Shown here in pieces: positions 12,181 to 27,275 of a DNA stretch of 64,000 nt (the stretch's first letter is position 1; the number at the start of each line of letters is the position of its first letter). The position numbers and the translations under genes are program-made. The stretch is from an uncultured Gammaproteobacteria bacterium (GTDB lineage Bacteria; Pseudomonadota; Gammaproteobacteria; SZUA-229): NCBI GenBank assembly GCA_963759005.1, contig CAVWXQ010000017.1:24833-88832 (forward strand), read 5' to 3'. The notes beneath the pieces were generated by a model. It worked only from the letters and a program-made list of their open reading frames with translations. It had not been told where the DNA came from and made no database searches.

Positions 12181-12341
12181 AGGGGAAATCTGATCAAGTC
12201 CAATTATATTAGCCTTGTTATAATCGTCCGTATCTTCTCGGCAATAGAATAACTATTCTACATTACTTCATGGAACATACGAACACAATCCTGTGCCTTA
12301 TTTTAATTAATTTGGCTAATTAACTTAATCAGAGATTCACT
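12181..12341. repeat. MITE-like element, GGGAAGCTCTGATTAAGTCC family (shorter copy)
   Basis: Ends AGGGGAAATCTGATCAAGTCCA and AACTTAATCAGAGATTCAC are mutually inverted. The interior aligns with 5010-5232. The right end abuts the ATG at 12344. Confidence 0.65.
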
Positions 12342-16813: not shown

Positions 16814-17530
16814 ATGACAGTCAGTGCTGCTGAAAATTTACTTGCTGTAAATTTAAGCAAGGTTCAGCAAAAAATTCAGCGCTGTGCTGAAGAAGCAGAG
16901 CGGGATAGCAATGAAATCCGCTTGATTGCCGTTTCAAAAACACGTTCACTTGATGAAGTCGAATCTGTTGCCTTGCTAGGACAAACTGCTTTTGCTGAAA
17001 ATACTATCCAGGATGCGATGACCAAGATTCCACAGCTCAATAATAAAGCATTGGAATGGCATTTTATTGGCCATTTGCAGTCAAAAAAAGCTGGCAAAAT
17101 CCCCGGCTATTTTCAGTGGATACATTCGGTCGATAGCATCAAACTTGCGCGAAAACTATCAACGGCAATGTTAAGTTATTCAAAAAACGCTGAACTTAAT
17201 TGTTTAATACAGGTAAATGTAAGTGGGGAGGATGGTAAGTCAGGCTTAAAACCTGCCGAGGTCAAACCTTTTTTACAGGTTGTGTTAAACCAGCACTTTC
17301 CTTGCCTGGTATGGCGAGGTTTGATGACTATTGGTGTGTTAGGTGACGAATCGCAAACACGCAGTGCTTTTGCGCAATTAAGAGAATTACAGCAATCCTG
17401 CAAAGAAGTCTTTGCTTTGTCCGATTTTGATCAGCTTTCAATGGGTATGAGTGGTGATTATTGTCTGGCTATCGAGGAAGGGGCTACGATGATCAGGGTT
17501 GGCACCTCGATTTTTGGCCAAAGAAATTAG
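16814..17530 (+). CDS. yggS: YggS family pyridoxal-phosphate homeostasis protein
   Basis: LIAVSKT PLP-lysine motif; length and layout typical of the family. Confidence 0.85.
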   Translation: MTVSAAENLLAVNLSKVQQKIQRCAEEAERDSNEIRLIAVSKTRSLDEVESVALLGQTAFAENTIQDAMTKIPQLNNKALEWHFIGHLQSKKAGKIPGYFQWIHSVDSIKLARKLSTAMLSYSKNAELNCLIQVNVSGEDGKSGLKPAEVKPFLQVVLNQHFPCLVWRGLMTIGVLGDESQTRSAFAQLRELQQSCKEVFALSDFDQLSMGMSGDYCLAIEEGATMIRVGTSIFGQRN

Positions 17531-17754: not shown

Positions 17755-18708
17755 TTAAGCTTTCTTTTCCAATTCTGGCGTAGAATCTGTTTTGTGCATT
17801 TCTAGCTGCATTGCTTCTCTTCTTTCAGTTGCAGCTTTACGGTGTTCTTCCATCATTTTGATATTTAATGCCCGGCGCTCTTCCATTTGTTTGATAAATT
17901 CATCGCGTCGCTTCTGTACGTCTGCCGGAACATTGTTATTAAAAGCAGAAGCATTATCAGCGGAATACTGTTTTCTGCGTTCCAGGAAACGCTTATAGGA
18001 TTCCTGTTGTGCTTCTTGTGCCTGTTGACGACGTTCGTCCATTTGCATGCGGTAGCTTTGATCATCACTTATAGCCTGTGGCTGGCTGGCTTGTTGAGCA
18101 CTGACCGCGGCGTCTGCTTTCGCTACAGCTGAAGTTGCTTTCCTGTCAGCCTTCTGGTCTACAGGAGCAGCAGTATTATTGTTAGTGTTAGCAATCCCGC
18201 TGTCATCTTTGCTCTCACTATTCTCACTGATATTTAACGCCCGGCGCTCTTCCATCTTTTTGATATTTAATGCATGACGCTCTTCCATTTGTTTGATAAA
18301 TTCGTCGCGTCGCTTCTGTACGTCTGCCGGAACATTGTTATTAAAAGCAGAAGCATTATCAGCGGAATACTGTTTTCTGCGTTCCAGGAAACGCTTATAG
18401 GATTCCAGTTGTGCTTCTTGTGCCTGTTGACGACGTTCGTCCATTTGCTTACGGTAGCTTTGATCATCACTGATAGCCTGTGGTTGGCTGGCTTGTTGAG
18501 TGCTGACCGCGGTGTCTGCTTTCGCTACAGCTGAAGCTGCTTTACTTTCAGCATTCTGGGCTGCCGGAGAAGTGGTATTGCTGATAGTGTTAGCAGTCGC
18601 ATTATCATTACTCTCAGTTGTTATTGACTCAGCAGCCAGTACGGTATTCGTAAAAACGAATGAAAGAACTAATGCTGTTAATTGAATTTTTGATTTTGAA
18701 GCTTTCAT
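17755..18708 (-). CDS. secreted K/E/Q/R-rich coiled-coil protein with two 134-aa tandem repeats (island gene A)
   Basis: Start taken at MKASKSKIQLTALVLSFVFTNTVLA/AES (Sec signal peptide, AAGG SD). Repeat unit ...SAVAKAD.AVS.QQASQPQAISDDQSYR.QMDERRQQAQEAQ.ESYKRFLERRKQYSADNASAFNNNVPADVQKRRDEFIKQMEER... occurs twice. No recognisable family. Confidence 0.7.
   Translation of the reverse strand: MKASKSKIQLTALVLSFVFTNTVLAAESITTESNDNATANTISNTTSPAAQNAESKAASAVAKADTAVSTQQASQPQAISDDQSYRKQMDERRQQAQEAQLESYKRFLERRKQYSADNASAFNNNVPADVQKRRDEFIKQMEERHALNIKKMEERRALNISENSESKDDSGIANTNNNTAAPVDQKADRKATSAVAKADAAVSAQQASQPQAISDDQSYRMQMDERRQQAQEAQQESYKRFLERRKQYSADNASAFNNNVPADVQKRRDEFIKQMEERRALNIKMMEEHRKAATERREAMQLEMHKTDSTPELEKKA
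17861..18540. repeat. intragenic tandem duplication, period 402 nt
   Basis: Near-identical nucleotide blocks offset by 402 nt (for example 17863 vs 18265). The out-of-frame ORFs 17865-18068 and 18267-18470 have near-identical translations. Confidence 0.85.
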
Positions 18709-18799
18709 TTCGTTTACCTTTTTTGATTTGAAATTATTTTTTATGTGCTGGTATTTAGAGGCAAAAAATACAGCACAAACAGGGGATGTACAGATTGTT

Positions 18800-18828
18800 A
18801 TTATATTAGAGAATATTAATATAGTCAA
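18800..18828 (-). promoter_or_regulatory. consensus sigma70 promoter of island gene A
   Basis: Minus strand reads TTGACT-17 nt (ATATTAATATTCTCTAA)-TATAAT, ~85 nt upstream of the ATG. Confidence 0.65.
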
Positions 18829-18882
18829 ACTATAATATAGTGATCTGGCGTTTTATTTCTTCTGGAAAAGTGCGTATAGCAG

Positions 18883-18912
18883 AAAAAAAGGCGCATGAAA
18901 ATGCGCCTTTTT
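18883..18912 (-). terminator. terminator of island gene B (bidirectional hairpin)
   Basis: GGCGCAT-GAAA-ATGCGCC flanked by A7 and T5 runs. Confidence 0.7.
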
Positions 18913-18942
18913 GGCCGGTGTTACCGTATTAACAGCTAGTTT

Positions 18943-20163
18943 TTAGATGTTTTGTATTTGCTCAGTTTTTGAGTCCGGCTTTGGTGTAATACTGTTATTT
19001 CTGAGCGGTGGCTGTGAATTACGCATCATCTGGTGCATTTGTTTTTGCATGTCAGATATTTCTTTATGCATTTTCTTCATTTTCTGTATTGTTTCTATAC
19101 GATTTTTTTCAATTTGTTGATGTATTTCTTTTTGCGCTTTAGCAATTTCTGCTCTTCTTTCCCGATAAGCTTTTTTCGTAGCTTCATACTCCTCACGCTT
19201 GACCTGTATTTCTTGTTCATAGGCCTGGCGGCGCTGTTGCATCACTTCATTGTGTTTTTTTCTCTGCTCCAGTGAACGTGCCTTGGCTTCCTTGCGGGCC
19301 TGTTCATAAGCCTGCTTGTTAGCATATGGATGGCGTTGAGAGGGTGTAGAACGATTTTGCATGGGCATTTGATCGCTAGTTGGTTCTGTGGTCGAACTGT
19401 CTTCTGCTGATGTTGTTTCAATCGTTTCTACCTCTTCACGCTTGGCCTGTATTTCTTTTTCATAGGCCTGGCGGCGCTGTTGCATCAATTCATTGTGTTT
19501 TTTTCTCTGCTCCAGTGAACGTGCCTTGGCCTCCTTGCGGGCCTGTTCATAAGCCTGCTTGTTAGCATATGGATTGCGTTGAGAGGGTGTAGAACGATTC
19601 TGCATGGGCATTTGATCCCTAGTTGGTTCTGCGGTCGTACTATCTTCTTCTGATGCTGTTTCACTCGTTTCTACAGCAGTTATCGTTGTGGTGGTGTCGG
19701 GCAGGTGCTCATCTGCTGAAGTAACGGGTGTTATGTTTACTTCAGCTGCTTGTGTAGTAACTACTGCATCGTTTGCCTGTTCATCAGTTGTTGAGGATGT
19801 TTGTTGTTCTGAAGCGGGCTCTACAGAAGCTGGTGTTTCAGACACGGGTTCTTCAGAAACTAGCACATTAGAAGTCGGTTTTTTTGATAGTGTTTCTGCA
19901 GTGGCGGTTACAACAGTACTGGAGGTGTTCTCAAGCGAGTCAGTTATTGTGTCTGCTCGTACCCCCAGGTCCTTGTATTCGTCTTCATAGAAAGTCGCAG
20001 CGATAACGATAGCTGATACCAGCAGCAATACCAGTGGGATTACCACATTGCTCTTTGCTGATTCTGTCTGATTGTCTTGTTGCTTGTTTTTTTTCATATA
20101 GGGAGCAATCTCGGCTGCTTTTGTTTCTGATTTGTTTTCAATTTTATTATTAGTGTCACTCAT
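18943..20163 (-). CDS. membrane-anchored low-complexity + coiled-coil protein with 81-aa tandem repeat (island gene B)
   Basis: GGGAG SD. N-terminal TM VVIPLVLLLVSAIVIAATFY, then a T/S/E/V-rich spacer. Duplicated unit DQMPMQNRSTPSQR.PYANKQAYEQARKEAKARSLEQRKKHNE.MQQRRQAYE.EIQ.KREE. Met/His/Gln-rich tail. Confidence 0.7.
   Translation of the reverse strand: MSDTNNKIENKSETKAAEIAPYMKKNKQQDNQTESAKSNVVIPLVLLLVSAIVIAATFYEDEYKDLGVRADTITDSLENTSSTVVTATAETLSKKPTSNVLVSEEPVSETPASVEPASEQQTSSTTDEQANDAVVTTQAAEVNITPVTSADEHLPDTTTTITAVETSETASEEDSTTAEPTRDQMPMQNRSTPSQRNPYANKQAYEQARKEAKARSLEQRKKHNELMQQRRQAYEKEIQAKREEVETIETTSAEDSSTTEPTSDQMPMQNRSTPSQRHPYANKQAYEQARKEAKARSLEQRKKHNEVMQQRRQAYEQEIQVKREEYEATKKAYRERRAEIAKAQKEIHQQIEKNRIETIQKMKKMHKEISDMQKQMHQMMRNSQPPLRNNSITPKPDSKTEQIQNI
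19195..19645. repeat. intragenic tandem duplication, period ~243 nt
   Basis: Blocks 19195-19400 and 19437-19642 are near-identical. Confidence 0.85.
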
Positions 20164-20298
20164 CTCATACTCCCAGGTAAAATGTGTTTAGATCGATATC
20201 TTCTTTTTATGCAGCTATTGCTATTTTAGTTAAAGTTGTTCAGTACTAAAAAGGCCAAAAATATCTTATAGGATTCTGCATTTTCTAGTCAATAGTTA

Positions 20299-20781
20299 CT
20301 ACTTGTTATGGAGTGATTGTTTAGTCGCAGGCGCTGGACGTGCAGGTGCCTGTCTACTATATGTATATGGCGCGTATCCGTAGTTAAGTGGCTGTCTGTT
20401 GTATGATTGATAGCCATATGGCGCGTAATAACGGCCGTAACGGTTGCCATAGCGATTATTGTTGTTATATCTGTAATTGTTGTTCCAGTAGTTATCGTTG
20501 TAACCATAACCTCGGGCATCACCTCTGCCTCTGCCTTTGCCTCGAACCTTGAACCTGATTTCTACGTCCATGTCGCCGGACATATCCCCAAATACGTCAT
20601 CCATAAAATCGCCCATAAAATTGTCATTCCAACGATTGTTCCAGCGGTTATTGTTCACATGATTGTTATTCCAGCGATTGCCATAACGATCATCGTCATT
20701 ATCAAAAGGGCCCCACCATGCTATTGCGCTGGTTGATGTTGCGAGCACCGTAGCGGCAGTGAATATTTGTAAGATTTTCAT
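20299..20781 (-). CDS. small exported Asn/Arg/Tyr/Trp/Gly-rich protein (island gene C, most divergent paralog)
   Basis: Signal peptide MKILQIFTAATVLATSTSAIA, acidic block, FKVRGKGRGRGDARG core, YAPYGY motifs and a Pro/Ala tail. Confidence 0.7.
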   Translation of the reverse strand: MKILQIFTAATVLATSTSAIAWWGPFDNDDDRYGNRWNNNHVNNNRWNNRWNDNFMGDFMDDVFGDMSGDMDVEIRFKVRGKGRGRGDARGYGYNDNYWNNNYRYNNNNRYGNRYGRYYAPYGYQSYNRQPLNYGYAPYTYSRQAPARPAPATKQSLHNK

Positions 20782-21047
20782 TTTAATTCCTGAAATTTGT
20801 TAGCAGTGGATTTCATAGCGCTTGTTCTGTTACTAGTCTATTGTTTTAAAAAGTATACGGAAGTATTACTATAATCAATACTTCAGATGAGGTATACAGG
20901 TATTTGAGTATACACTGCGGTTAAGAATTTAATCTATTATTGATTTATACAAAAATCCCGGGCAAATAGCTGCCTTACTATGACCTCCGGGGAATGCTGG
21001 AAATGCAAACAGATTGTCTGCAACCATCTTTGCTTTCCTGTAGGCAA

Positions 21048-21079
21048 GAAAAAAAGCCGTGTCAGGAGACACGGCTTTT
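21048..21079 (-). terminator. terminator of island gene D
   Basis: GCCGTGTC-AGGA-GACACGGC with the U-run on the minus strand (A8 on plus). Confidence 0.75.
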
Positions 21080-21101
21080 ATAAGTTTTTAGTAAAACTTA
21101 T

Positions 21102-21512
21102 TTAGCTGGTGCAGCTGGTGCTGCAGGAGCAGCGTGCAGGTGCTGGTGCTGCATAAGGACCAGGTCCATAATAACCAGGACCAGGACCATAGTACGGACG
21201 ATTGTAATAACCGCTATTATAACGATTATCCCAACGATTATCCCAGTTGTTATAACCACTACCGTAGTATTCGTTACGAGCATCACCGCGACCACGACCA
21301 CGTGCATTACCACTCATACCGAAATTAAAACTACCGTCGACATCACCATAACCGTCACCATAACCGTCACCATATCCGGATCCGTAGGCGTCATTGCGCC
21401 AGTCATTACGCCAGTCGTTGTTCCAGTTAGAGTTATTGTTACCCCAGTCAGCAGAAACTGCAGTTGATGCAGCTAAGATAGTTGCAGCAGCAATTGTTAG
21501 TAAAGTTTTCAT
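21102..21512 (-). CDS. small exported Asn/Gly/Tyr/Trp-rich protein (island gene D)
   Basis: GAGGG SD + MKTLLTIAAATILAASTAVSA/DW signal peptide, GYGDGYGDGYGDVDG acidic block and FNFGMSGNARGRGRGDA core. The C-terminus deviates from the family (see finding). Confidence 0.7.
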   Translation of the reverse strand: MKTLLTIAAATILAASTAVSADWGNNNSNWNNDWRNDWRNDAYGSGYGDGYGDGYGDVDGSFNFGMSGNARGRGRGDARNEYYGSGYNNWDNRWDNRYNSGYYNRPYYGPGPGYYGPGPYAAPAPARCSCSTSCTS

Positions 21513-21607
21513 TTTATTAACCCTCATTTAATTTACTTTGTTTAAAAAACCATGCGCTTGATTCATTAGAATCATCTACATCTGGCTCATCAGAACCATT
21601 GAGTATT

Positions 21608-21636
21608 ATTATATTAGTATTAAATAATATAGTCAA
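21608..21636 (-). promoter_or_regulatory. consensus sigma70 promoter of island gene D
   Basis: Minus strand reads TTGACT-17 nt (ATATTATTTAATACTAA)-TATAAT. Confidence 0.65.
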
Positions 21637-21815
21637 ATACTAAAACCTCTTTGTTCAAGCTGTTTCGAAGTTTACGTGTAATATTTATAACTATATATTT
21701 GAAGTAACTTATGAGTTATATTTAATGTTACTTATTACCAAAATGTATCGCTTAATAGGTACTGATAAACCCTAAATCTATCCTTTTTTATTGTCATAAA
21801 GTGTGTCAAATGACG

Positions 21816-21854
21816 AAAAAAAAGAAGTCGGTACGAAACGTACCGACTTCTTTT
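21816..21854 (-). terminator. terminator of island gene E
   Basis: 12-bp stem GAAGTCGGTACG/CGTACCGACTTC, AAA loop, A8 on plus (U-run on minus). Confidence 0.75.
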
Positions 21855-21951
21855 AGCAGTTAAGTTTATCTCTTTATGTTAGAGCTTTATGACTCAAATA
21901 AAGCCGATAGAAACATACAGATTGTTAATAATTGATGAGATAGCATTTTAA

Positions 21952-22767
21952 TTAAATACGGTTGAGAACTTTCTCGCGATTTGACTGGCTTCGTTGCATG
22001 CTTGCAGCACGTATATCAATCCGTTCTTTGTTACGCAATATTAGTGCTTCGATCAGTTGTTCTTGCTTAGCAATTCGCTGACGTAAACGTTCAACATGTT
22101 TATCCTGGGAGATTTTATACTGGTGAAGCTGTTTAGATTCGAGTGATTTAACTCGAGCAAACATTTCAGTCATGTGTCGTTTTTGCTCAAGTTTATAAGA
22201 TTCGATGCGAGCCTGTCTTTCCTGATCACGTTTTGTCATTGCACGTTGAGCCTGATATATTTCTGCAGAATTTTTGCTTTTTGCTGGTTCGATTACAGCT
22301 ACATCAGTAGAACTAGTTTGCTCAGTGCTGACGATTGCTTCAGACACAGTTTCTTTGTTTGTGTTTTCAGTTGCTACCAGTACTTCTGCTGTTTGAACTT
22401 CAGTAGCCTGAACTTCAGTAGCCTGAACTTCTACCAGTGCTACTTCGGCTTCAGCTACTTCTGTTGTTTCTTGTGCTTCACTAATGGCAACGCTGGAGAC
22501 AGTTGCTTCACTTATCTCAGTTGAAGCCGTGTTGCTTGCAAGAGTAGCATTATTTTCAGCGACTTCACTTTCTATTGCTGCAAGCCGCTCATCGACGGTG
22601 CCAAGTTGTTTATTCAGCATGATGGCAGTTGTTACGATAATACTTACCATTATTACAGCAACAACTGCATATTTACCTAAAGGGCCAAATACTGTTTTGT
22701 TGTCGTTAGTTTTGTTTTCAGTGGTTACTGAAGTCCCATCTATTTTTTTAGTTTTTTTGGTACTCAT
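21952..22767 (-). CDS. membrane-anchored low-complexity + coiled-coil protein (island gene E)
   Basis: Start taken at MSTKKTKK. TM YAVVAVIMVSIIVTTAIML, EVQATEVQATEVQ 15-nt repeats, and a K/E/Q/R C-terminal helix region. Confidence 0.65.
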   Translation of the reverse strand: MSTKKTKKIDGTSVTTENKTNDNKTVFGPLGKYAVVAVIMVSIIVTTAIMLNKQLGTVDERLAAIESEVAENNATLASNTASTEISEATVSSVAISEAQETTEVAEAEVALVEVQATEVQATEVQTAEVLVATENTNKETVSEAIVSTEQTSSTDVAVIEPAKSKNSAEIYQAQRAMTKRDQERQARIESYKLEQKRHMTEMFARVKSLESKQLHQYKISQDKHVERLRQRIAKQEQLIEALILRNKERIDIRAASMQRSQSNREKVLNRI

Positions 22768-22810
22768 GATTTTTACCTGTGATAGCATCCTATACGTTGT
22801 ATTTTTTGTT

Positions 22811-22845
22811 AAAAAGCCCTACAACCGATGTCAAGAAGTAGGGCT
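22811..22845 (-). terminator. terminator of island gene F
   Basis: Stem AGCCCTAC/GTAGGGCT with an A-run on plus. Confidence 0.65.
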
Positions 22846-22865
22846 TCAAAGTTATCTGGCTAAAC

Positions 22866-23246
22866 TTATTTAGCTACAGTAGCTGGAGCTTCCTGTGGAG
22901 CAGGTGCAGTTTGAGGAGCTGGGGCATAACCGTAAGGAGCATAACCGTTGTAGTAACCGTTAGAACCGTTGTAGTTGTTGCTACCATTGTAGTAACCGTT
23001 GCCATTGCCGTTACCACGTCCGCGACCGCTACCTTTAGCTTTCATACCGAAAGAGAAAGAGCTGTCAAATTCGCCGTCACCGTCGAAGTCGCCAGAACCG
23101 TTACCGTTACCATTGCTATTGTGGTTGTTGTAACCGTTATAGTTAGAGTTGTTGTCGTCACCGAAGAAAGGCATATCCCAATCAGCAGAAACAGCAGTAG
23201 ACGCAGCCAAGATAGTTGCAGCAGCAATTGTTAATAATGTTTTCAT
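22866..23246 (-). CDS. small exported Asn/Gly/Tyr-rich protein (island gene F)
   Basis: GAGGG SD, signal peptide MKTLLTIAAATILAASTAVSA/DWDMPFFGD, GDFDGDGEFDSSFSFGMKAKGSGRGRG core and YAPYGYAPAPQTAPAPQEAPATVAK tail. Confidence 0.75.
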   Translation of the reverse strand: MKTLLTIAAATILAASTAVSADWDMPFFGDDNNSNYNGYNNHNSNGNGNGSGDFDGDGEFDSSFSFGMKAKGSGRGRGNGNGNGYYNGSNNYNGSNGYYNGYAPYGYAPAPQTAPAPQEAPATVAK

Positions 23247-23323
23247 TTTAAAACCCTCAAAGTTTGTTATACAGCTATATTTAAAAATAATTTCATGCGC
23301 TTAGTCTATATGACCAACTAGAA

Positions 23324-23352
23324 AGAATATTATAAAACTCTAATATAAGCAA
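23324..23352 (-). promoter_or_regulatory. sigma70-type promoter of gene F
   Basis: Minus strand TTGCTT-17 nt (ATATTAGAGTTTTATAA)-TATTCT, positionally homologous to the promoters of A, D, G, H and I. Confidence 0.5.
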
Positions 23353-23566
23353 TATCTAAATATAGATGGAGCCGACTAAGAGACGGTTTTTAAATGGGTT
23401 TTATTTTTTATCTATCTCCCCAGTTTGTTTATATCTGCAAGCTGGTCGCTAGGATCGAAAGGGCAGGGGTGGAGAAATAAACTGATTATCAAATCTACCC
23501 AGAGTTAAATGAGATTGAGTATCTGTTGGTATTTGATCAGGTCAGATTTTTATATTGGCTATAAAT

Positions 23567-23604
23567 AAAAAAGCCCGACATCTGAAATCCAGAAGCCGGG
23601 CTTT
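23567..23604 (-). terminator. terminator of island gene G
   Basis: AGCCCGAC...GCCGGGCT hairpin with A6 on plus (U-run on minus). Repeated at 24388 and 25211. Confidence 0.7.
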
Positions 23605-23622
23605 AACGTTATGTGGCTAAAC

Positions 23623-24021
23623 TTATTCAGCTACTGTAGCTGGAGCTGCCTGTGGAGCAGGTGCAGCCTGAGGAGCTGGAGCATAACCGTAAGGCGCATA
23701 ACCGTTGTAGTAACCGTTAGAACCGTTGTAGTTATTATAACCATTGTAGTTACCATCGTAGTTACCGTTACCACGACCTTGACCACGACCACGACCTTTA
23801 GCTTTCATACCAAAAGAGAAAGAAGTGTCAAATTCGCCGTCACCGTCGAATTCACCATCGCCAGAACCATTACCGTTACCGTTGTTGTTCCAGTTAGAGT
23901 TGTTGTAGTTAGAGTTGTAGCCATTATCGTTGTCACCGAAGAAAGGCATATCCCAATCAGCAGAAACAGCAGTAGATGTTGCCAGGATAGTTGCAGCAGT
24001 AATTGTTAGTATTGTTTTCAT
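23623..24021 (-). CDS. small exported Asn/Gly/Tyr-rich protein (island gene G)
   Basis: Signal peptide + DWDMPFFGDNDNGYNSNYNNSNWNNNGNGNGSGDGEFDGDGEFDTSFSFGMKAKGRGRGQGRG...YAPYGYAPAPQAAPAPQAAPATVAE. Confidence 0.75.
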   Translation of the reverse strand: MKTILTITAATILATSTAVSADWDMPFFGDNDNGYNSNYNNSNWNNNGNGNGSGDGEFDGDGEFDTSFSFGMKAKGRGRGQGRGNGNYDGNYNGYNNYNGSNGYYNGYAPYGYAPAPQAAPAPQAAPATVAE

Positions 24022-24100
24022 TAGTAAGCCCTCATGTTTGTTTTACAGCAATATTAGAAATACATTCCCATGCGCTTGGTTTTCACAACCAGAGAAAAAA

Positions 24101-24129
24101 AGTATATTATAAAATACTAATATATGCAA
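24101..24129 (-). promoter_or_regulatory. sigma70-type promoter of gene G
   Basis: Minus strand TTGCAT-17 nt (ATATTAGTATTTTATAA)-TATACT. Confidence 0.55.
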
Positions 24130-24387
24130 TATCTAATTTATTGTTTGGAGACGTCTAAGCGTATTGTGTTTTAAGTGGTTTTAATTATGTATGATTTTTT
24201 AAAAATAGAAAGGCCGGTACAATGGGGTGCCGGCCTGTTTACTCAGTTTGATTATTTCTCATCCTGGCCGCTATGATCGAAAAGCCTGATTGTAGAAATT
24301 AACTGATTCTTATATCAGTCCAGATTTAACAACGATCGTGTATCTGTTGGTATTTGATCAGGTCAGATTTTTATATCGGCTATAACT

Positions 24388-24425
24388 AAAAAAGCCCGAC
24401 ATCTGAAATCCAGAAGCCGGGCTTT
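24388..24425 (-). terminator. terminator of island gene H
   Basis: Same hairpin as 23567-23604. Confidence 0.7.
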
Positions 24426-24443
24426 AACGTTATGTGGCTAAAC

Positions 24444-24842
24444 TTATTCAGCTACTGTAGCTGGCGCTGCCTGTGGAGCAGGTGCAGCCTGAGGAGCTGG
24501 AGCATAACCGTAAGGCGCATAACCGTTGTAGTAACCGTTAGAACCATTGTAGTTGTTACTACCATAGTAGTTACCATCGTAGTTACCGTTACCACGACCT
24601 TGACCACGGCCACGACCTTTTGCTTTCATACCGAAAGAGAAAGAAGTGTCAAATTCGCCGTCACCGTCGAATTCACCATCGCCAGAACCATTACCGTTAC
24701 CGTTGTTGTTCCAGTTAGAGTTGTTGTAGTTAGAGTTGTAGCCATTATCGTTGTCACCGAAGAAAGGCATATCCCAATCAGCAGAAACAGCAGTAGATGT
24801 TGCCAGGATAGTTGCAGCAGCAATTGTTAATAATGTTTTCAT
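24444..24842 (-). CDS. small exported Asn/Gly/Tyr-rich protein (island gene H)
   Basis: 132 aa; differs from gene G product at 4 positions by my alignment. Confidence 0.75.
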   Translation of the reverse strand: MKTLLTIAAATILATSTAVSADWDMPFFGDNDNGYNSNYNNSNWNNNGNGNGSGDGEFDGDGEFDTSFSFGMKAKGRGRGQGRGNGNYDGNYYGSNNYNGSNGYYNGYAPYGYAPAPQAAPAPQAAPATVAE

Positions 24843-24920
24843 TTTAAAACCCTCAAAGTTTGTTATACAGCAATATTTAAAAAAATTTTCATGCGCTTGG
24901 TCCGTATGACCAGTGAGGGA

Positions 24921-24949
24921 AGTATATTAGAAATATCTAATATTAGCAA
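24921..24949 (-). promoter_or_regulatory. sigma70-type promoter of gene H
   Basis: Minus strand TTGCTA-17 nt (ATATTAGATATTTCTAA)-TATACT. Confidence 0.55.
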
Positions 24950-25210
24950 GTTATAATTTACTTGTTTTGGATATGACCATCTAAGCGATTGTTTTGAAGA
25001 GGATTATATTTTGTATTTTTATTTTAAAAGTAGAAAGGCCGACACAATGGGGTGCCGGCCTTTTTACTCAGTTTGATTATTTCTCATCCTGGCCGCTATG
25101 ATCGAAAAGCCTGGTTGTAGAAATTAACTGATTCTTATATCAGTCCAGATTTAACTACGATGTGTATCTGTTCGATTTGATCAGGTCAGATTTTTATATT
25201 GGCTATAACT

Positions 25211-25248
25211 AAAAAAGCCCGACATCTGAAATCCAGAAGCCGGGCTTT
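25211..25248 (-). terminator. terminator of decayed copy I
   Basis: Same hairpin as 23567 and 24388. Confidence 0.7.
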
Positions 25249-25266
25249 AACGTTATGTGGCTAAAC

Positions 25267-25666
25267 TTATTCAGCTACTGTAGCTGGAGCTGCCTGTGGA
25301 GCAGGTGCAGCCTGAGGAGCTGGAGCATAACCGTAAGGCGCATAACCGTTGTAGTAACCGTTAGAACCGTTGTAGTTGTTGATAACCATTGTAGTTACCA
25401 TTGCCAGTTACCGTTACCACGACCTTGACCACGACCACGACCTTTAGCTTTCATACCGAAAGAGAAAGAAGTGTCAAATTCGCCGTCACCGTCGAATTCC
25501 CGTCGCCAGAACCGTTACCGTTACCGTTGTTGTTCCAGTTAGAGTTGTTGTAGTTAGAGTTGTAGCCATTATCGTTGTCACCGAAGAAAGGCATATCCCA
25601 ATCAGCAGAAACAGCAGTAGATGTTGCCAGGATAGTTGCAGCAGCAATTGTTAATAATGTTTTCAT
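25267..25666 (-). pseudogene. decayed third tandem copy of the Asn/Gly/Tyr-rich protein gene (island gene I)
   Basis: Start MKTLLTIAAATILATS at 25666 with an intact SD and promoter. Relative to G/H there is a 1-nt loss near 25499 (GAATTCACCATCGCC becomes GAATTCCCGTCGCC) and a 1-nt gain near 25410. The shifted frame hits a stop at 25451. Confidence 0.75.
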
Positions 25667-25844
25667 TTTAAAACCCTCAAAGTTTGTTATACAGCAATAT
25701 TTAAAAAAATTTTCATGCGCTTGGTCCGTATGACCAGTGAGAGGAAGTATATTAGAAATATCTAATATTAGCAAGTACTAATTGATTTTTATCATTAGAT
25801 AATTTATAACATATTGTTTTTAGTGATTTTAAATATGCTATTGC

Positions 25845-27275
25845 TTAGATTTTTATTGATTCAGCGTATTCAAGTAGTTCTTCAAGCAGTGCTAATTGGC
25901 TGCCAATGGTGTCTGGTGACTGTTGAATAGCTTCAATTTCTGCCAAAAACTGGTTGAATGTTCGGTTTGAGGTGGCCGGGTTGCTAAATTTGTCCTGCCG
26001 ATAGTCATTCCATTGCTTACGTTCTTCATTATTAAGTGTTTCCAGATAGTTTCGAGCCCGGAAGCGAAATAACATTTCTTCCAGGCGGGCATCATCAAAA
26101 TTAAAATGCAGGCTGTTGAGTTTGGCTACAGGCGTGTTTCGTATAGTGTCAATGCGCTGGCTGTCATCGCGACTGAAAAAGCCACCGGAATACAACTGGC
26201 CATCCGGATCGCTGACTTCGGGGAAATCACTCTGCTGGAATATGGCCGCGGTTTTGGCTGCAAACTCATCTATATGTTGCATAATAAGTTCACGATGTTG
26301 CTGGCAGAGCTCAACATCAATGTTAAGTCTCTGGGCTGCATTATCATCCATGGTTTTTAAAGGCACGATAACGGGGCACTTATTTATGTGTATCTGTTTA
26401 AGCGGTATTCGTTTTACACCTTCCGGTAATTCTTTTGCCGGTGTATATAGTCTGGCGGCCATTTCATCAACATCTGCGGCAAAAAATTCCTCAGGATGAA
26501 CATTCAGGTCATACACAATAAAGCCATTTTTATTCACTGGATGCTGGCTAATTGGCATGACCATCGCAATCGCGCCACGTTCAGCTGAATATCGTGAGGA
26601 AACATGAAGAATAGCTTCACGAGTGCGTAAATTGATGAGCTTACTGACTTCGGTTTTTTTGCGCATGTTATAGATATACTGATAAAGGCGCGGTTGTTTT
26701 TCTTTAATAAGTTTAGCAACAGCAATGGTTGCATAGACATCCGACATCGCATCATGCGCTGCTTCATGTTTGATGTTATTAGCTTTGGTGAGTAATTCCA
26801 GGCGTATACTGGGGTGGCCATCCTGTTCAGGCCAGTTAATACCGTCGGGCCTTAAAGCACGGGTTAAGCGCACCGTGTCGATAATGTCCCAACGGGAATT
26901 TCCGTGTTGCCACTCATGAGAATAAGCATTGAAAAAATTTCGGTATAAGGCATTGCGGGTAAATTCATCATCGAAACGGATGTTGTTATAACCGGCAACA
27001 CAGGTAGCGGGTGTGGAAAATTCTTTATGGATGGTGGCAATAAACTCTGCTTCGTTAATGCCATCGGCAAGTGCTTTTTGTGGCGTGATACCGGTAATTA
27101 AACAGGCGCGTGGATCAGGCAGGCAATCATCAGCGGGTTTGCAATATAATGTAAGCGGATCACTGATGATGTTTAATTCTTCATCGGTGCGAATGCCGGC
27201 AAACTGTGACAGACGATCATATCGTGGATCAATGCCAAAAGTTTCGTAGTCGTACCAGTAGATGGAGTTTGTCAT
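25845..27275 (-). CDS. sbcB: exodeoxyribonuclease I
   Basis: N-terminal YWYDYETFG DEDDh exonuclease motif; full-length ExoI-like protein. Confidence 0.9.
   Translation of the reverse strand: MTNSIYWYDYETFGIDPRYDRLSQFAGIRTDEELNIISDPLTLYCKPADDCLPDPRACLITGITPQKALADGINEAEFIATIHKEFSTPATCVAGYNNIRFDDEFTRNALYRNFFNAYSHEWQHGNSRWDIIDTVRLTRALRPDGINWPEQDGHPSIRLELLTKANNIKHEAAHDAMSDVYATIAVAKLIKEKQPRLYQYIYNMRKKTEVSKLINLRTREAILHVSSRYSAERGAIAMVMPISQHPVNKNGFIVYDLNVHPEEFFAADVDEMAARLYTPAKELPEGVKRIPLKQIHINKCPVIVPLKTMDDNAAQRLNIDVELCQQHRELIMQHIDEFAAKTAAIFQQSDFPEVSDPDGQLYSGGFFSRDDSQRIDTIRNTPVAKLNSLHFNFDDARLEEMLFRFRARNYLETLNNEERKQWNDYRQDKFSNPATSNRTFNQFLAEIEAIQQSPDTIGSQLALLEELLEYAESIKI

Follow-up and report, generated by a model that had tools for sequence, protein, structure and literature searches.

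What could nine neighbouring genes be doing together when their products are predicted to be exported or membrane-anchored and none resembles an enzyme? The question is raised by a 64,000-nucleotide stretch of DNA (hereafter the window) from an uncultured Gammaproteobacteria bacterium (contig CAVWXQ010000017.1), in which yggS (16814-17530, plus strand) and sbcB (25845-27275, minus strand) flank nine successive minus-strand open reading frames (ORFs), named genes A to I. The original prediction, made from the letters alone, had described nine co-oriented genes lacking enzyme-like sequence; the ORF listing and a Pfam and NCBIfam scan of all nine products, with zero enzyme-like matches, agree on both points. 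It had also named sulfur globule envelope proteins as a lead, recognized no homology to any named family and left room for an undescribed envelope or sheath system. The six small genes (C, D, F, G, H and I) add to a sulfur globule protein family that is already known, which makes the last suggestion an overstatement and restricts the lack of named homologs to A, B and E. The small genes very probably encode Sgp-family coat proteins, and the sequence evidence described below argues that the cluster is probably an sgp regulon in which A, B and E serve as accessory components.

The assignment of the small genes rests on the Pfam family PF17228 (‘SGP, Sulphur globule protein’; the SgpA/B or CV1/CV2 family), which has a profile of 93 positions and a gathering score of 26.7 bits. 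The products of C (28.4 bits), D (29.2 bits), F (34.2 bits), G (36.6 bits) and H (33.0 bits) all exceed this cut-off, with matches that span profile positions ~2-89. The 71-residue N-terminal fragment of gene I gives no PF17228 match. The proteins are of low complexity, and shuffling was therefore used as a test for a purely compositional match. When the signal peptide was kept and the mature part shuffled, 0 of 10 controls matched PF17228, even at E<=10. The cut-off is also passed by nine of ten SGP-like ORFs from related loci, distant ones included, and a search with G returned 24 homologs, 23 of which carry PF17228. One G homolog, from the Solemya velum gill symbiont, is named ‘Sulfur globule protein CV1’ in UniRef and shares with G the mature N-terminus DWDMPFFGDD, a GRGRG block and a YAPYGYAP...APAP tail. 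Next to the sgp gene of the Solemya symbiont lies a gene for a multi-pass membrane protein with no relation to A, B or E. The sulfur globule lead of the original prediction is thus upheld for C, D, F, G and H.

The small-gene products are rich in Asn, Gly, Tyr, Asp and Arg, and their N-termini resemble signal peptides. Signal peptides of all genes were read from the sequence (n-region Lys, hydrophobic core, and a VSA/DW, IA/WW or LA/AE junction); those of the SGPs consist of MK and ~17 hydrophobic residues followed by VSA/DW or IA/WW. The earlier description of six small signal-peptide proteins of this composition holds with two corrections, in that gene I is not intact and the tail of D is frameshifted. 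The mature SGPs contain 104-138 residues, of which 9-17% are Gly and 8-11% Tyr, and end in a C-terminal tail (YAPYGYAPAPQAAPAPQAAP) with spaced Pro residues. They fall into three subtypes. Type 1 (F, G, H and I) is acidic, with an isoelectric point (pI) of about 4.2-4.5 and a net charge of -4 to -6, and F has the mature N-terminus DWDMPFFGD. Type 2 (D) begins with DWGNNNSNWNN in its mature form. Type 3 (C) is basic (pI 9.5) and begins with WWGPFDNDD. In C, D, F, G and H, low-complexity Asn/Gly/Tyr/Ser sequence is combined with GRGRG(Q)GRG blocks and an acidic D/E-F-D-G segment, a composition that resembles the eukaryotic low-complexity and RGG domains that undergo phase separation. By this analogy of composition, the Sgp coat might assemble through condensation on sulfur. 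A distant relative (L019) encodes an SGP-like protein of 381 residues (L019:14525-15670), three times the usual size, which scores 22.3 bits, just under the Pfam cut-off; its gene lies between B and yggS, the position of A in the window.

The sgp genes carry marks of high expression. They show strong codon bias and a GAGGG Shine-Dalgarno sequence, with sgp versus housekeeping frequencies of 0.70/0.34 for Asn-AAC, 0.56/0.25 for Tyr-TAC, 0.65/0.23 for Phe-TTC and 0.74/0.50 for GGT. The codon bias of A, B and E is near background, and the Shine-Dalgarno sequences of A and E are weaker. This sequence pattern fits abundant coat proteins accompanied by minor accessory components.

Promoters and terminators were called as consensus matches. 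A clear promoter-like element is found only at I, H, G, F, D and A, with the consensus TTG(c/a)(t/c)(t/a)ATATTAGA-N5-6-T(a/t)TAATATA(c/a)T. It contains an inverted repeat (ATATTAGA/TCTAATAT) located between and overlapping the -35 and -10 elements, and the resulting palindrome pattern is TTGcTTATATTAGA-N5-6-TwTAATATAcT. Within the window, the strict pattern matches I, H and G only; the looser pattern adds F, D and A and a single site outside the cluster, at 12204. The site is conserved in related loci, and its inverted repeat may be a candidate operator for a regulator of sulfur storage.

Downstream of the promoter-like element, the leaders comprise, in order, a hairpin, an invariant AAGCGCATG, a TTGCTGTwAAACAAA box and the Shine-Dalgarno sequence. 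In type-3 (C-like) genes the box is kept and the hairpin is absent. The motif AAGCGC(N)ATG precedes SGP genes on their own strand in all related loci examined, with a chance expectation of ~0.08 per 20 kb. Leader instances were drawn from the window and from loci L001-L172. A hairpin of at least 5 bp abuts the motif in 79% of 118 distinct leaders, compared with 21% of shuffles, when each instance is folded separately. The 47 distinct stem-arm pairs include the double compensatory changes TGGTC/GACCA, TGATTC/GAATCA, TCATTC/GAATGA, TAGTC/GACTA and TCTTC/GAAGA. RNAalifold found no consensus structure in a MAFFT alignment of 34 leaders, in which the arms fell out of register owing to variation in stem and loop length, and the evidence for the hairpin thus rests on the comparison of per-instance folding with shuffles. 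A search of 17.4-26.0 kb with Rfam gave nothing above gathering. The hairpin begins about 8 nt past the -10 element, which places it at or near the predicted 5′ end of the mRNA. The ompA mRNA is known for a stabilizing 5′ stem-loop, and by analogy the leader hairpin is compatible with an element of that kind.

The arrangement of these signals distinguishes the transcription units. Type-1 genes F, G, H and I form a tandem array of units of ~760-825 bp with mutual identities of 67-99%, each unit consisting of promoter, leader, sgp gene and terminator. Genes I, H, G and D each have their own promoter-like site and terminator hairpin, as does F, beyond whose terminator lies E. The start codon of E is located 98 nt past the F stop codon, just beyond the terminator. 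In close relatives, a single terminator hairpin makes up essentially all of the SGP-E spacer, and a GC-rich hairpin with a T-run is visible in ten of ten related spacers inspected (a crude automated test flagged 27 of 56). In three distant relatives (L161, L165 and L171), E has its own copy of the sgp promoter and of the hairpin/GCGCATG leader. The C-B spacer contains no terminator, and B directly follows C. The earlier claim that most of the nine genes have their own promoter and terminator therefore applies to the promoters of I, H, G, F, D and A; it fails for E, which lies past the F terminator, and for B, which lies behind C.

Genes B and E encode proteins with a single N-terminal hydrophobic helix, a linker rich in Thr, Ser, Glu and Val, and a C-terminal part rich in Lys, Glu, Gln and Arg. 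In B, the transmembrane (TM) segment (about residues 39-59) is followed by an acidic disordered linker (net charge -20), a 59-residue helix and a basic 100-residue helix (net charge +11). The AlphaFold2 model of B contains a TM helix (residues 41-75), a disordered segment (residues 76-197), a helix (residues 198-256), further disorder and a final helix (residues 283-383; 100 residues) with a predicted local distance difference test score (pLDDT) of >90. The 59-residue helix lies in a recent 81-residue duplication (243 nt in tandem, 94% identity; 19189-19674). In E, the TM segment (about residues 33-52) leads through an acidic linker (net charge -17) to a conserved basic C-terminal domain of ~105 residues (net charge +11). 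The C-terminal 106 residues of E contain zero Pro and zero Gly, and from this and by analogy with B the domain is presumably helical. The contrast in charge is marked, with a pI of 4.05 for the linkers versus 10-10.5 for the basic C-terminal helical parts. Positive N-termini before the TM segment predict an N-in, C-out topology for both proteins. Invariant positions of both proteins lie mainly in the TM/juxtamembrane segment and in the C-terminal helix, and the linkers range in length from ~25 to ~270 residues. That the TM helix is so strongly conserved suggests that it may have a specific membrane partner.

One relative (L006) has two E-family genes (L006:4763-6046 and L006:7753-8355). One product (427 residues) has a repetitive linker of ~270 residues, and the other consists of the C-terminal domain behind a cleavable signal peptide, with no anchor. 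The anchorless paralog indicates that the C-terminal domain is the functional module and that anchoring is optional.

Gene A encodes a predicted Sec-type signal peptide followed by two copies of a disordered Ser/Thr/Ala/Asn linker and a helical hairpin of ~88 residues. The two 134-residue repeats reported earlier correspond to a recent internal duplication of 402 nt with 95% identity (17840-18541). Its AlphaFold2 model contains the signal helix, ~55 disordered residues, a first hairpin (residues 78-123/128-165), ~45 disordered residues and a second hairpin (residues 211-256/262-305). A has neither a Pfam, NCBIfam or PDB-sequence match nor, for its model, a Foldseek match in the PDB. It has 34 homologs in a search of 5.8 billion clusters, all unnamed and mostly single-repeat proteins of 175-195 residues; the only two labelled ones are from Gammaproteobacteria metagenome-assembled genomes (MAGs).

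The same search yielded 63 homologs of B, none with a precomputed Pfam domain, and E is represented by 112 clusters at 50% identity among 1.84 billion representatives. Neither B nor E matches Pfam or NCBIfam, and neither has a meaningful match among PDB sequences: B gives only a weak charged-helix match to ribosomal protein L7, and E gives none. Foldseek found no match to the B model in the PDB, and no member of the A, B or E families bears a meaningful name. HHalign between families gave a probability of 77% for A-B over 49 helical columns and 71% for B-E, the latter over the TM helix only, and nothing for A-E. Given such marginal similarity, A, B and E are best treated as three families rather than one. 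They nevertheless have one common design, consisting of a signal peptide or N-in anchor, a disordered polar or acidic linker and long charged helices.

An enzymatic or persulfide-carrier role for the cluster is ruled out by the lack of catalytic domains and of cysteines. Cys is absent from all nine products, apart from three Cys residues in the frameshifted tail of gene D.

Conservation of the cluster was compared in the loci of A and B homologs, in 80 sbcB-anchored genomes and in 80 metagenome contigs retrieved through the E family. On every contig of sufficient length, the order is sbcB - SGP(n) - E - SGP - SGP - B - (A) - yggS - aminotransferase, with A found in only a subset of the cluster-bearing relatives. 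This order recurs in about 30 contigs that reach sbcB, B or yggS, of which about 16 span sbcB or E to yggS, and the cluster-bearing assemblies come from NCBI, ENA, JGI and Logan. The yggS orthologs in related loci belong to the Ala_racemase_N family. The nearest species-representative genomes by SbcB are uncultured ‘Thiotrichaceae’/‘Thiotrichales’ MAGs (82-87% identity). SbcB identity to the window is 85% for NORP24 (L013) and 67% for the 2.8-Mb chromosome CP070838.1, and the cluster is present down to about 66%. Genomes with SbcB identity of 59% or less have no cluster genes and no yggS beside sbcB. The original prediction had proposed comparison of the yggS-sbcB interval in relatives, and the comparison shows a recurring cluster order and one empty site. 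The empty site is that of L016 (SbcB identity 69%), in which sbcB and yggS are separated by ~500 nt without an sgp cluster (L016:11434-11940). L016 offers a natural comparison genome for the loss or gain of sulfur storage.

The pairing of sgp genes with E and B is equally constant. On the same strand, the gene immediately upstream of E is an SGP gene in 56 of the 58 loci with enough DNA (median gap, 100 nt), and another SGP gene follows E in 38 of 41. The upstream gene is of type 1 in 53 of 55 loci for E and a C-like type-3 gene in 20 of 25 loci for B. The SGP-E pairing holds even where E is only 28-30% identical to the E of the window. In L017, an SGP-E-SGP block lies ~8 kb from sbcB with intervening DNA, and the three genes are still adjacent. 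The A, B and E families are restricted, in the sequences searched, to the clade that carries the cluster. G+C across the region is unremarkable, and on this ground, together with clade-wide synteny, a horizontally transferred island was rejected. The ‘island’ of the original prediction is thus better described as an old clade-specific insert, present at the same site in many related assemblies, than as a strain-specific island. Within the clade, the A and B duplications and the four type-1 copies of the window, against the one or two usual upstream of E in its relatives, point to expansion of coat and accessory modules in the sub-lineage of the window.

The gene content of a close relative is consistent with sulfur storage. 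A Sox system without SoxCD, combined with rDsr, is a genotype in which stored sulfur is an obligatory intermediate. NORP24, which carries the same cluster, is listed with Calvin-Benson-Bassham (CBB) form IA+B, soxABXYZ (no soxCD), sqr and rdsrA (Tully et al., Table 2; PMC5739024). This is the sulfur-storing genotype. In the window itself, cbbQ was confirmed by Pfam and adjoins a 737-residue ORF without a Pfam match, which had earlier been called cbbO; the remaining genes outside the cluster are housekeeping genes only. The chemoautotroph context suggested earlier therefore fits both cbbQ and the published truncated Sox, sqr and rDsr of the relative. The habitats of related contigs, by their record titles, include hydrothermal vent metagenomes. 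The host of the locus is probably an uncultured marine, CO2-fixing, sulfur-oxidizing bacterium of the Thiotrichales/Thiotrichaceae.

Gene pairs, shared cis elements and expression proxies place A, B and E with the sgp genes, and association of the three products with the globule is, by a small margin, the favoured assignment. In the proposed model, C, D, F, G, H and the broken I would encode the Sec-exported SgpA/SgpB-family proteins of which the coat of periplasmic sulfur globules is built, each produced abundantly from its own strong promoter with a 5′ leader hairpin and a terminator. E would be produced at a low ratio through partial read-through of the upstream type-1 sgp terminator, or in other lineages from its own sgp-type promoter, and B would be co-transcribed with the type-3 sgp gene C. 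Both would be bitopic inner-membrane proteins with a cytoplasmic N-terminus, a TM helix, an acidic periplasmic linker of 110-140 residues and a basic long-helix domain. The basic helical domains would bind the Sgp coat, of which the abundant type-1 proteins are acidic, and the anchors and flexible linkers would tether or organize the globule at the cytoplasmic membrane. Gene A would supply a soluble periplasmic two-hairpin protein that acts, in analogy to SgpD, as a coat or adaptor component. Export and coating by Sgp, globule location, coat binding, tethering and expression ratios are all inferred steps, and the tethering mechanism in particular is doubtful. Its fullest version is somewhat more doubtful still: B and E would be the first dedicated sulfur globule tethers, each bridging the gap with its acidic disordered linker and gripping a specific Sgp subtype with its basic helices, with A as a soluble coat adaptor, and the globule would be an organized, anchored, organelle-like compartment. 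In such an arrangement, the TM helices of B and E could possibly stand beside the machinery that imports stored sulfur for rDsr, and the coat would perhaps condense on the sulfur surface from the low-complexity Asn/Gly/Tyr and RGG proteins.

Several observations weigh against a globule regulon with A, B and E as its accessory components. All SGP-E-B linkage occurs at one syntenic site, between sbcB and yggS, so that common descent could suffice as an explanation. A, B and E are at most marginally similar to one another. Their helices are no more amphipathic, by hydrophobic moment, than shuffled versions, which leaves both ‘coiled coil’ and ‘amphipathic coat helix’ unproven; of the layout originally described for B and E, the anchor, the spacer and the K/E/Q/R part stand and the coiled coil lacks specific support. 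A divergent B subfamily (P0094-96) with 38% identity and the same architecture lacks an SGP gene in the surrounding 4-10 kb or so. With a grand average of hydropathy (GRAVY) of -1.3 to -1.7, the mature Sgp-like proteins are hydrophilic, and the 64-kb window contains no sox, dsr, sqr or fcc genes.

The single-site linkage and the divergent B subfamily would fit the view that the small genes are sgp genes and A, B and E are general periplasmic or envelope proteins, such as spacers, division proteins or integrity factors, retained by inherited synteny. This explanation is unlikely, yet it is the strongest of the alternatives. TolA-type proteins, too, have an anchor and, behind it, a long periplasmic region that is helical or extended, and one B homolog (P0070) bears the JGI label ‘EnvC’. 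Neither identity could be substantiated for B: TolA_C, Peptidase_M23 (LytM) and other envelope domains are absent from the Pfam scan, no Pfam domain occurs in its 63 homologs, and the EnvC label appears to be a coiled-coil artefact. The divergent B subfamily, which is found in unrelated contexts (L009:3852-4613, L173:8001-8729 and L175:8001-8741) and retains the N-terminal APY-KK motif, the TM helix, the linker and the LMQQRRQAYEKE helix behind an extra Lys/Ala-rich N-terminal extension, weakens the link between A/B/E and sgp without refuting it, as sgp genes can be dispersed, as they are in Allochromatium vinosum. Against inherited synteny stand an sgp-specific promoter type at A and the promoter and leader of the same type at E in distant relatives. 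Further points against it are fixed, subtype-specific gene pairs that persist down to 28% E identity, the adjacency retained in L017, and the confinement of the families to the cluster-bearing clade.

It is considerably less probable that the PF17228-like proteins and A, B and E form another extracytoplasmic material, such as a matrix, sheath, adhesive or condensate, rather than a globule coat. The hydrophilic Asn/Gly/Tyr and RGG-type low complexity would suit such a material, the Pfam scores exceed the cut-off by just 2-10 bits, the coat role of the Thiotrichales subfamily is deduced from sequence, and sulfur genes are missing from the window. The PF17228 match is nevertheless full-length and dependent on residue order, the N- and C-terminal motifs are common to symbiont proteins annotated as CV1, a cluster-bearing relative has the sulfur-storing genotype, and vent metagenomes are among the habitats of related contigs. 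The globule coat accordingly remains the preferred identity of the small proteins.

That the region is an assembly artefact, either a chimera or a collapsed or expanded repeat, is barely credible: near-identical ~821-bp tandem units are hard to assemble and indel-type errors are present, but the same gene order and the same sbcB and yggS junctions recur in many independent assemblies, which refutes the chimera that the original prediction had considered. The indels themselves are local. Relative to H and G, gene I carries -1, +1 and +1 single-base indels within ~115 nt and is otherwise near-identical, so that it splits into two ORF pieces with no full-length product. A 1-nt indel in gene D shifts the last ~10 codons; the alternative frame ends in AAPAAPAAPAK, similar to the ...APAAPATEAK of orthologs. 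Elsewhere in the window, pepN (99-2103; Peptidase_M1, DUF3458 and DUF3458_C) is split into two overlapping ORFs. Together, these lesions suggest indel-type assembly errors rather than real pseudogenes, and only the copy number of type-1 units and the integrity of gene I could be artefactual.

Comparison with characterized systems shows which features of the cluster are shared. Like SgpA and SgpB (CV1/CV2) of A. vinosum and Thiocapsa roseopersicina, the small proteins have repetitive Gly/Tyr-rich sequences, spaced C-terminal Pro residues and predicted Sec-type signals, their genes have a predicted promoter and terminator of their own, and C, D, F, G and H lie above the curated cut-off. The four A. 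vinosum sgp genes have widely separated locus tags (Alvin_1905, 0358, 1325 and 2515) and are separate transcription units, each with its own promoter and rho-independent terminator (PMC10386293). In contrast, the window holds six copies of three subtypes at one site, with a clade-specific promoter palindrome and 5′ leader and three interleaved non-Sgp genes. The A. vinosum Sgp proteins have been described as extremely hydrophobic, whereas those of the window are very rich in Asn and hydrophilic by GRAVY.

SgpD (Alvin_2515) is a Sec-exported, helix-rich, non-enzymatic and dispensable protein found on globules, and its family has been reported to be restricted to Chromatiaceae at 1e-5 (PMC10386293). 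A resembles it in design only, through a predicted Sec signal, long helices split by low-confidence loops and internal repeats. It differs in forming two helical hairpins, and SgpD lacks membrane-anchored counterparts such as B and E. Homology between A and SgpD is unlikely, judging from the unnamed homologs of A and the reported range of SgpD; the two were set apart by description. In Beggiatoa leptomitoformis, a 15-kDa envelope protein (ALG67575.1) is induced by thiosulfate and needed for globules and lithotrophic growth (PMC7356093). Compared by description, it resembles the SGPs of the window as an exported, proline-spaced envelope protein of a colourless sulfur bacterium, but it is encoded by a single gene, and no accessory anchored proteins have been reported for it.

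B and E share with TolA-type anchors an N-terminal inner-membrane anchor and a long, extended or helical, charged periplasmic region. They differ in their acidic disordered linker and their confinement to the sgp cluster of one clade. A TolA-like identity was rejected for B and E: both lack a Pfam match and a globular TolA domain at the C-terminus, and their neighbours are sgp genes, sbcB and yggS rather than tol-pal. The phasins of polyhydroxyalkanoate granules offer a parallel in function only: they are plentiful helix-rich proteins without enzymatic activity that cover a storage inclusion, and related adaptor proteins link the inclusion to structures of the cell. Phasins, however, are cytoplasmic, amphipathic and unrelated in sequence, whereas the proteins described here are predicted to be periplasmic and are highly charged.

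Sulfur globules are a classic bacterial inclusion whose coat is known chiefly from purple sulfur bacteria; the attachment of stored sulfur to the periplasmic side of the cytoplasmic membrane and its transfer across that membrane are still to be explained. The locus shows that a widespread uncultured clade of marine sediments and vents keeps all of its coat genes in one cluster, predicted to be co-regulated, and A, B and E constitute three conserved candidate accessory proteins through which globule attachment and organization become testable. Judged against the searchable literature, three aspects appear to be new: a single co-regulated sgp cluster, three clade-restricted accessory proteins of which two are membrane-anchored, and the promoter palindrome with its 5′ leader. 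The promoter and leader signature could locate the rest of the sulfur storage regulon and its regulator. If A, B and E were unrelated to globules, the finding would shrink to a routine annotation of sgp paralogs.

Table 1. Positions of genes and predicted regulatory features of the sgp cluster in the window
Feature	Position	Strand	Description
Gene A	17755..18708	-	ORF; signal peptide and two linker/helical-hairpin copies
Gene B	18943..20163	-	ORF; N-in membrane anchor, acidic linker, two helices
Gene C	20299..20781	-	Type-3 sulfur globule protein; PF17228 match
Gene D	21102..21512 (ORF extends to 21527)	-	Type-2 sulfur globule protein; PF17228 match
Gene E	21952..22767	-	N-in membrane anchor, acidic linker, basic C-terminal domain
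Gene F	22866..23246	-	Type-1 sulfur globule protein; PF17228 match
Gene G	23623..24021	-	Type-1 sulfur globule protein; PF17228 match
Gene H	24444..24842	-	Type-1 sulfur globule protein; PF17228 match
Gene I	25267..25666	-	Fourth type-1 copy, broken as written
Tandem array F/G/H/I	22713..25790	-	Four units; repeat analysis (families D1, D2, D4)
Promoter-like element of I	25746..25774	-	TTGCTAATATTAGATATTTCTAATATACT (-35, 17 nt, -10)
Promoter-like element of H	24921-24949	-	
Promoter-like element of G	24106-24135	-	
Promoter-like element of F	23329-23358	-	
Promoter-like element of D	21608-21636	-	
Promoter-like element of A	18800-18828	-	
5′ leader of I	25667..25740	-	Hairpin (CTGGTC-ATAC-GGACC), invariant AAGCGCATG, TTGCTGTATAACAAAC, GAGGG, ATG
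5′ leader of H	24843-24916	-	
5′ leader of G	24022-24095	-	
5′ leader of F	23247-23320	-	
5′ leader of D	21513-21585	-	
Leader of C	20782-20835	-	Motif kept, hairpin absent
Terminator hairpin of F	22811..22847	-	Fills most of the 98-nt F-E spacer
Terminator after E	21820..21854	-	16-bp stem and T-run
Terminator after D	21052..21079	-	
Terminator after B	18882..18911	-	AAAAAGGCGCATTTTCATGCGCCTTTTTTT; closes the C-B unit

A second strong hairpin (AAAGGCCGGCACCCCATTGTGTCGGCCTTT) is present in each ~821-bp unit of the array, at 25034-25063 and near 24210-24240 on the minus strand (repeat family D11). It lies between the sgp terminator and the next promoter and might serve as an additional terminator, as an insulator or as a small RNA.

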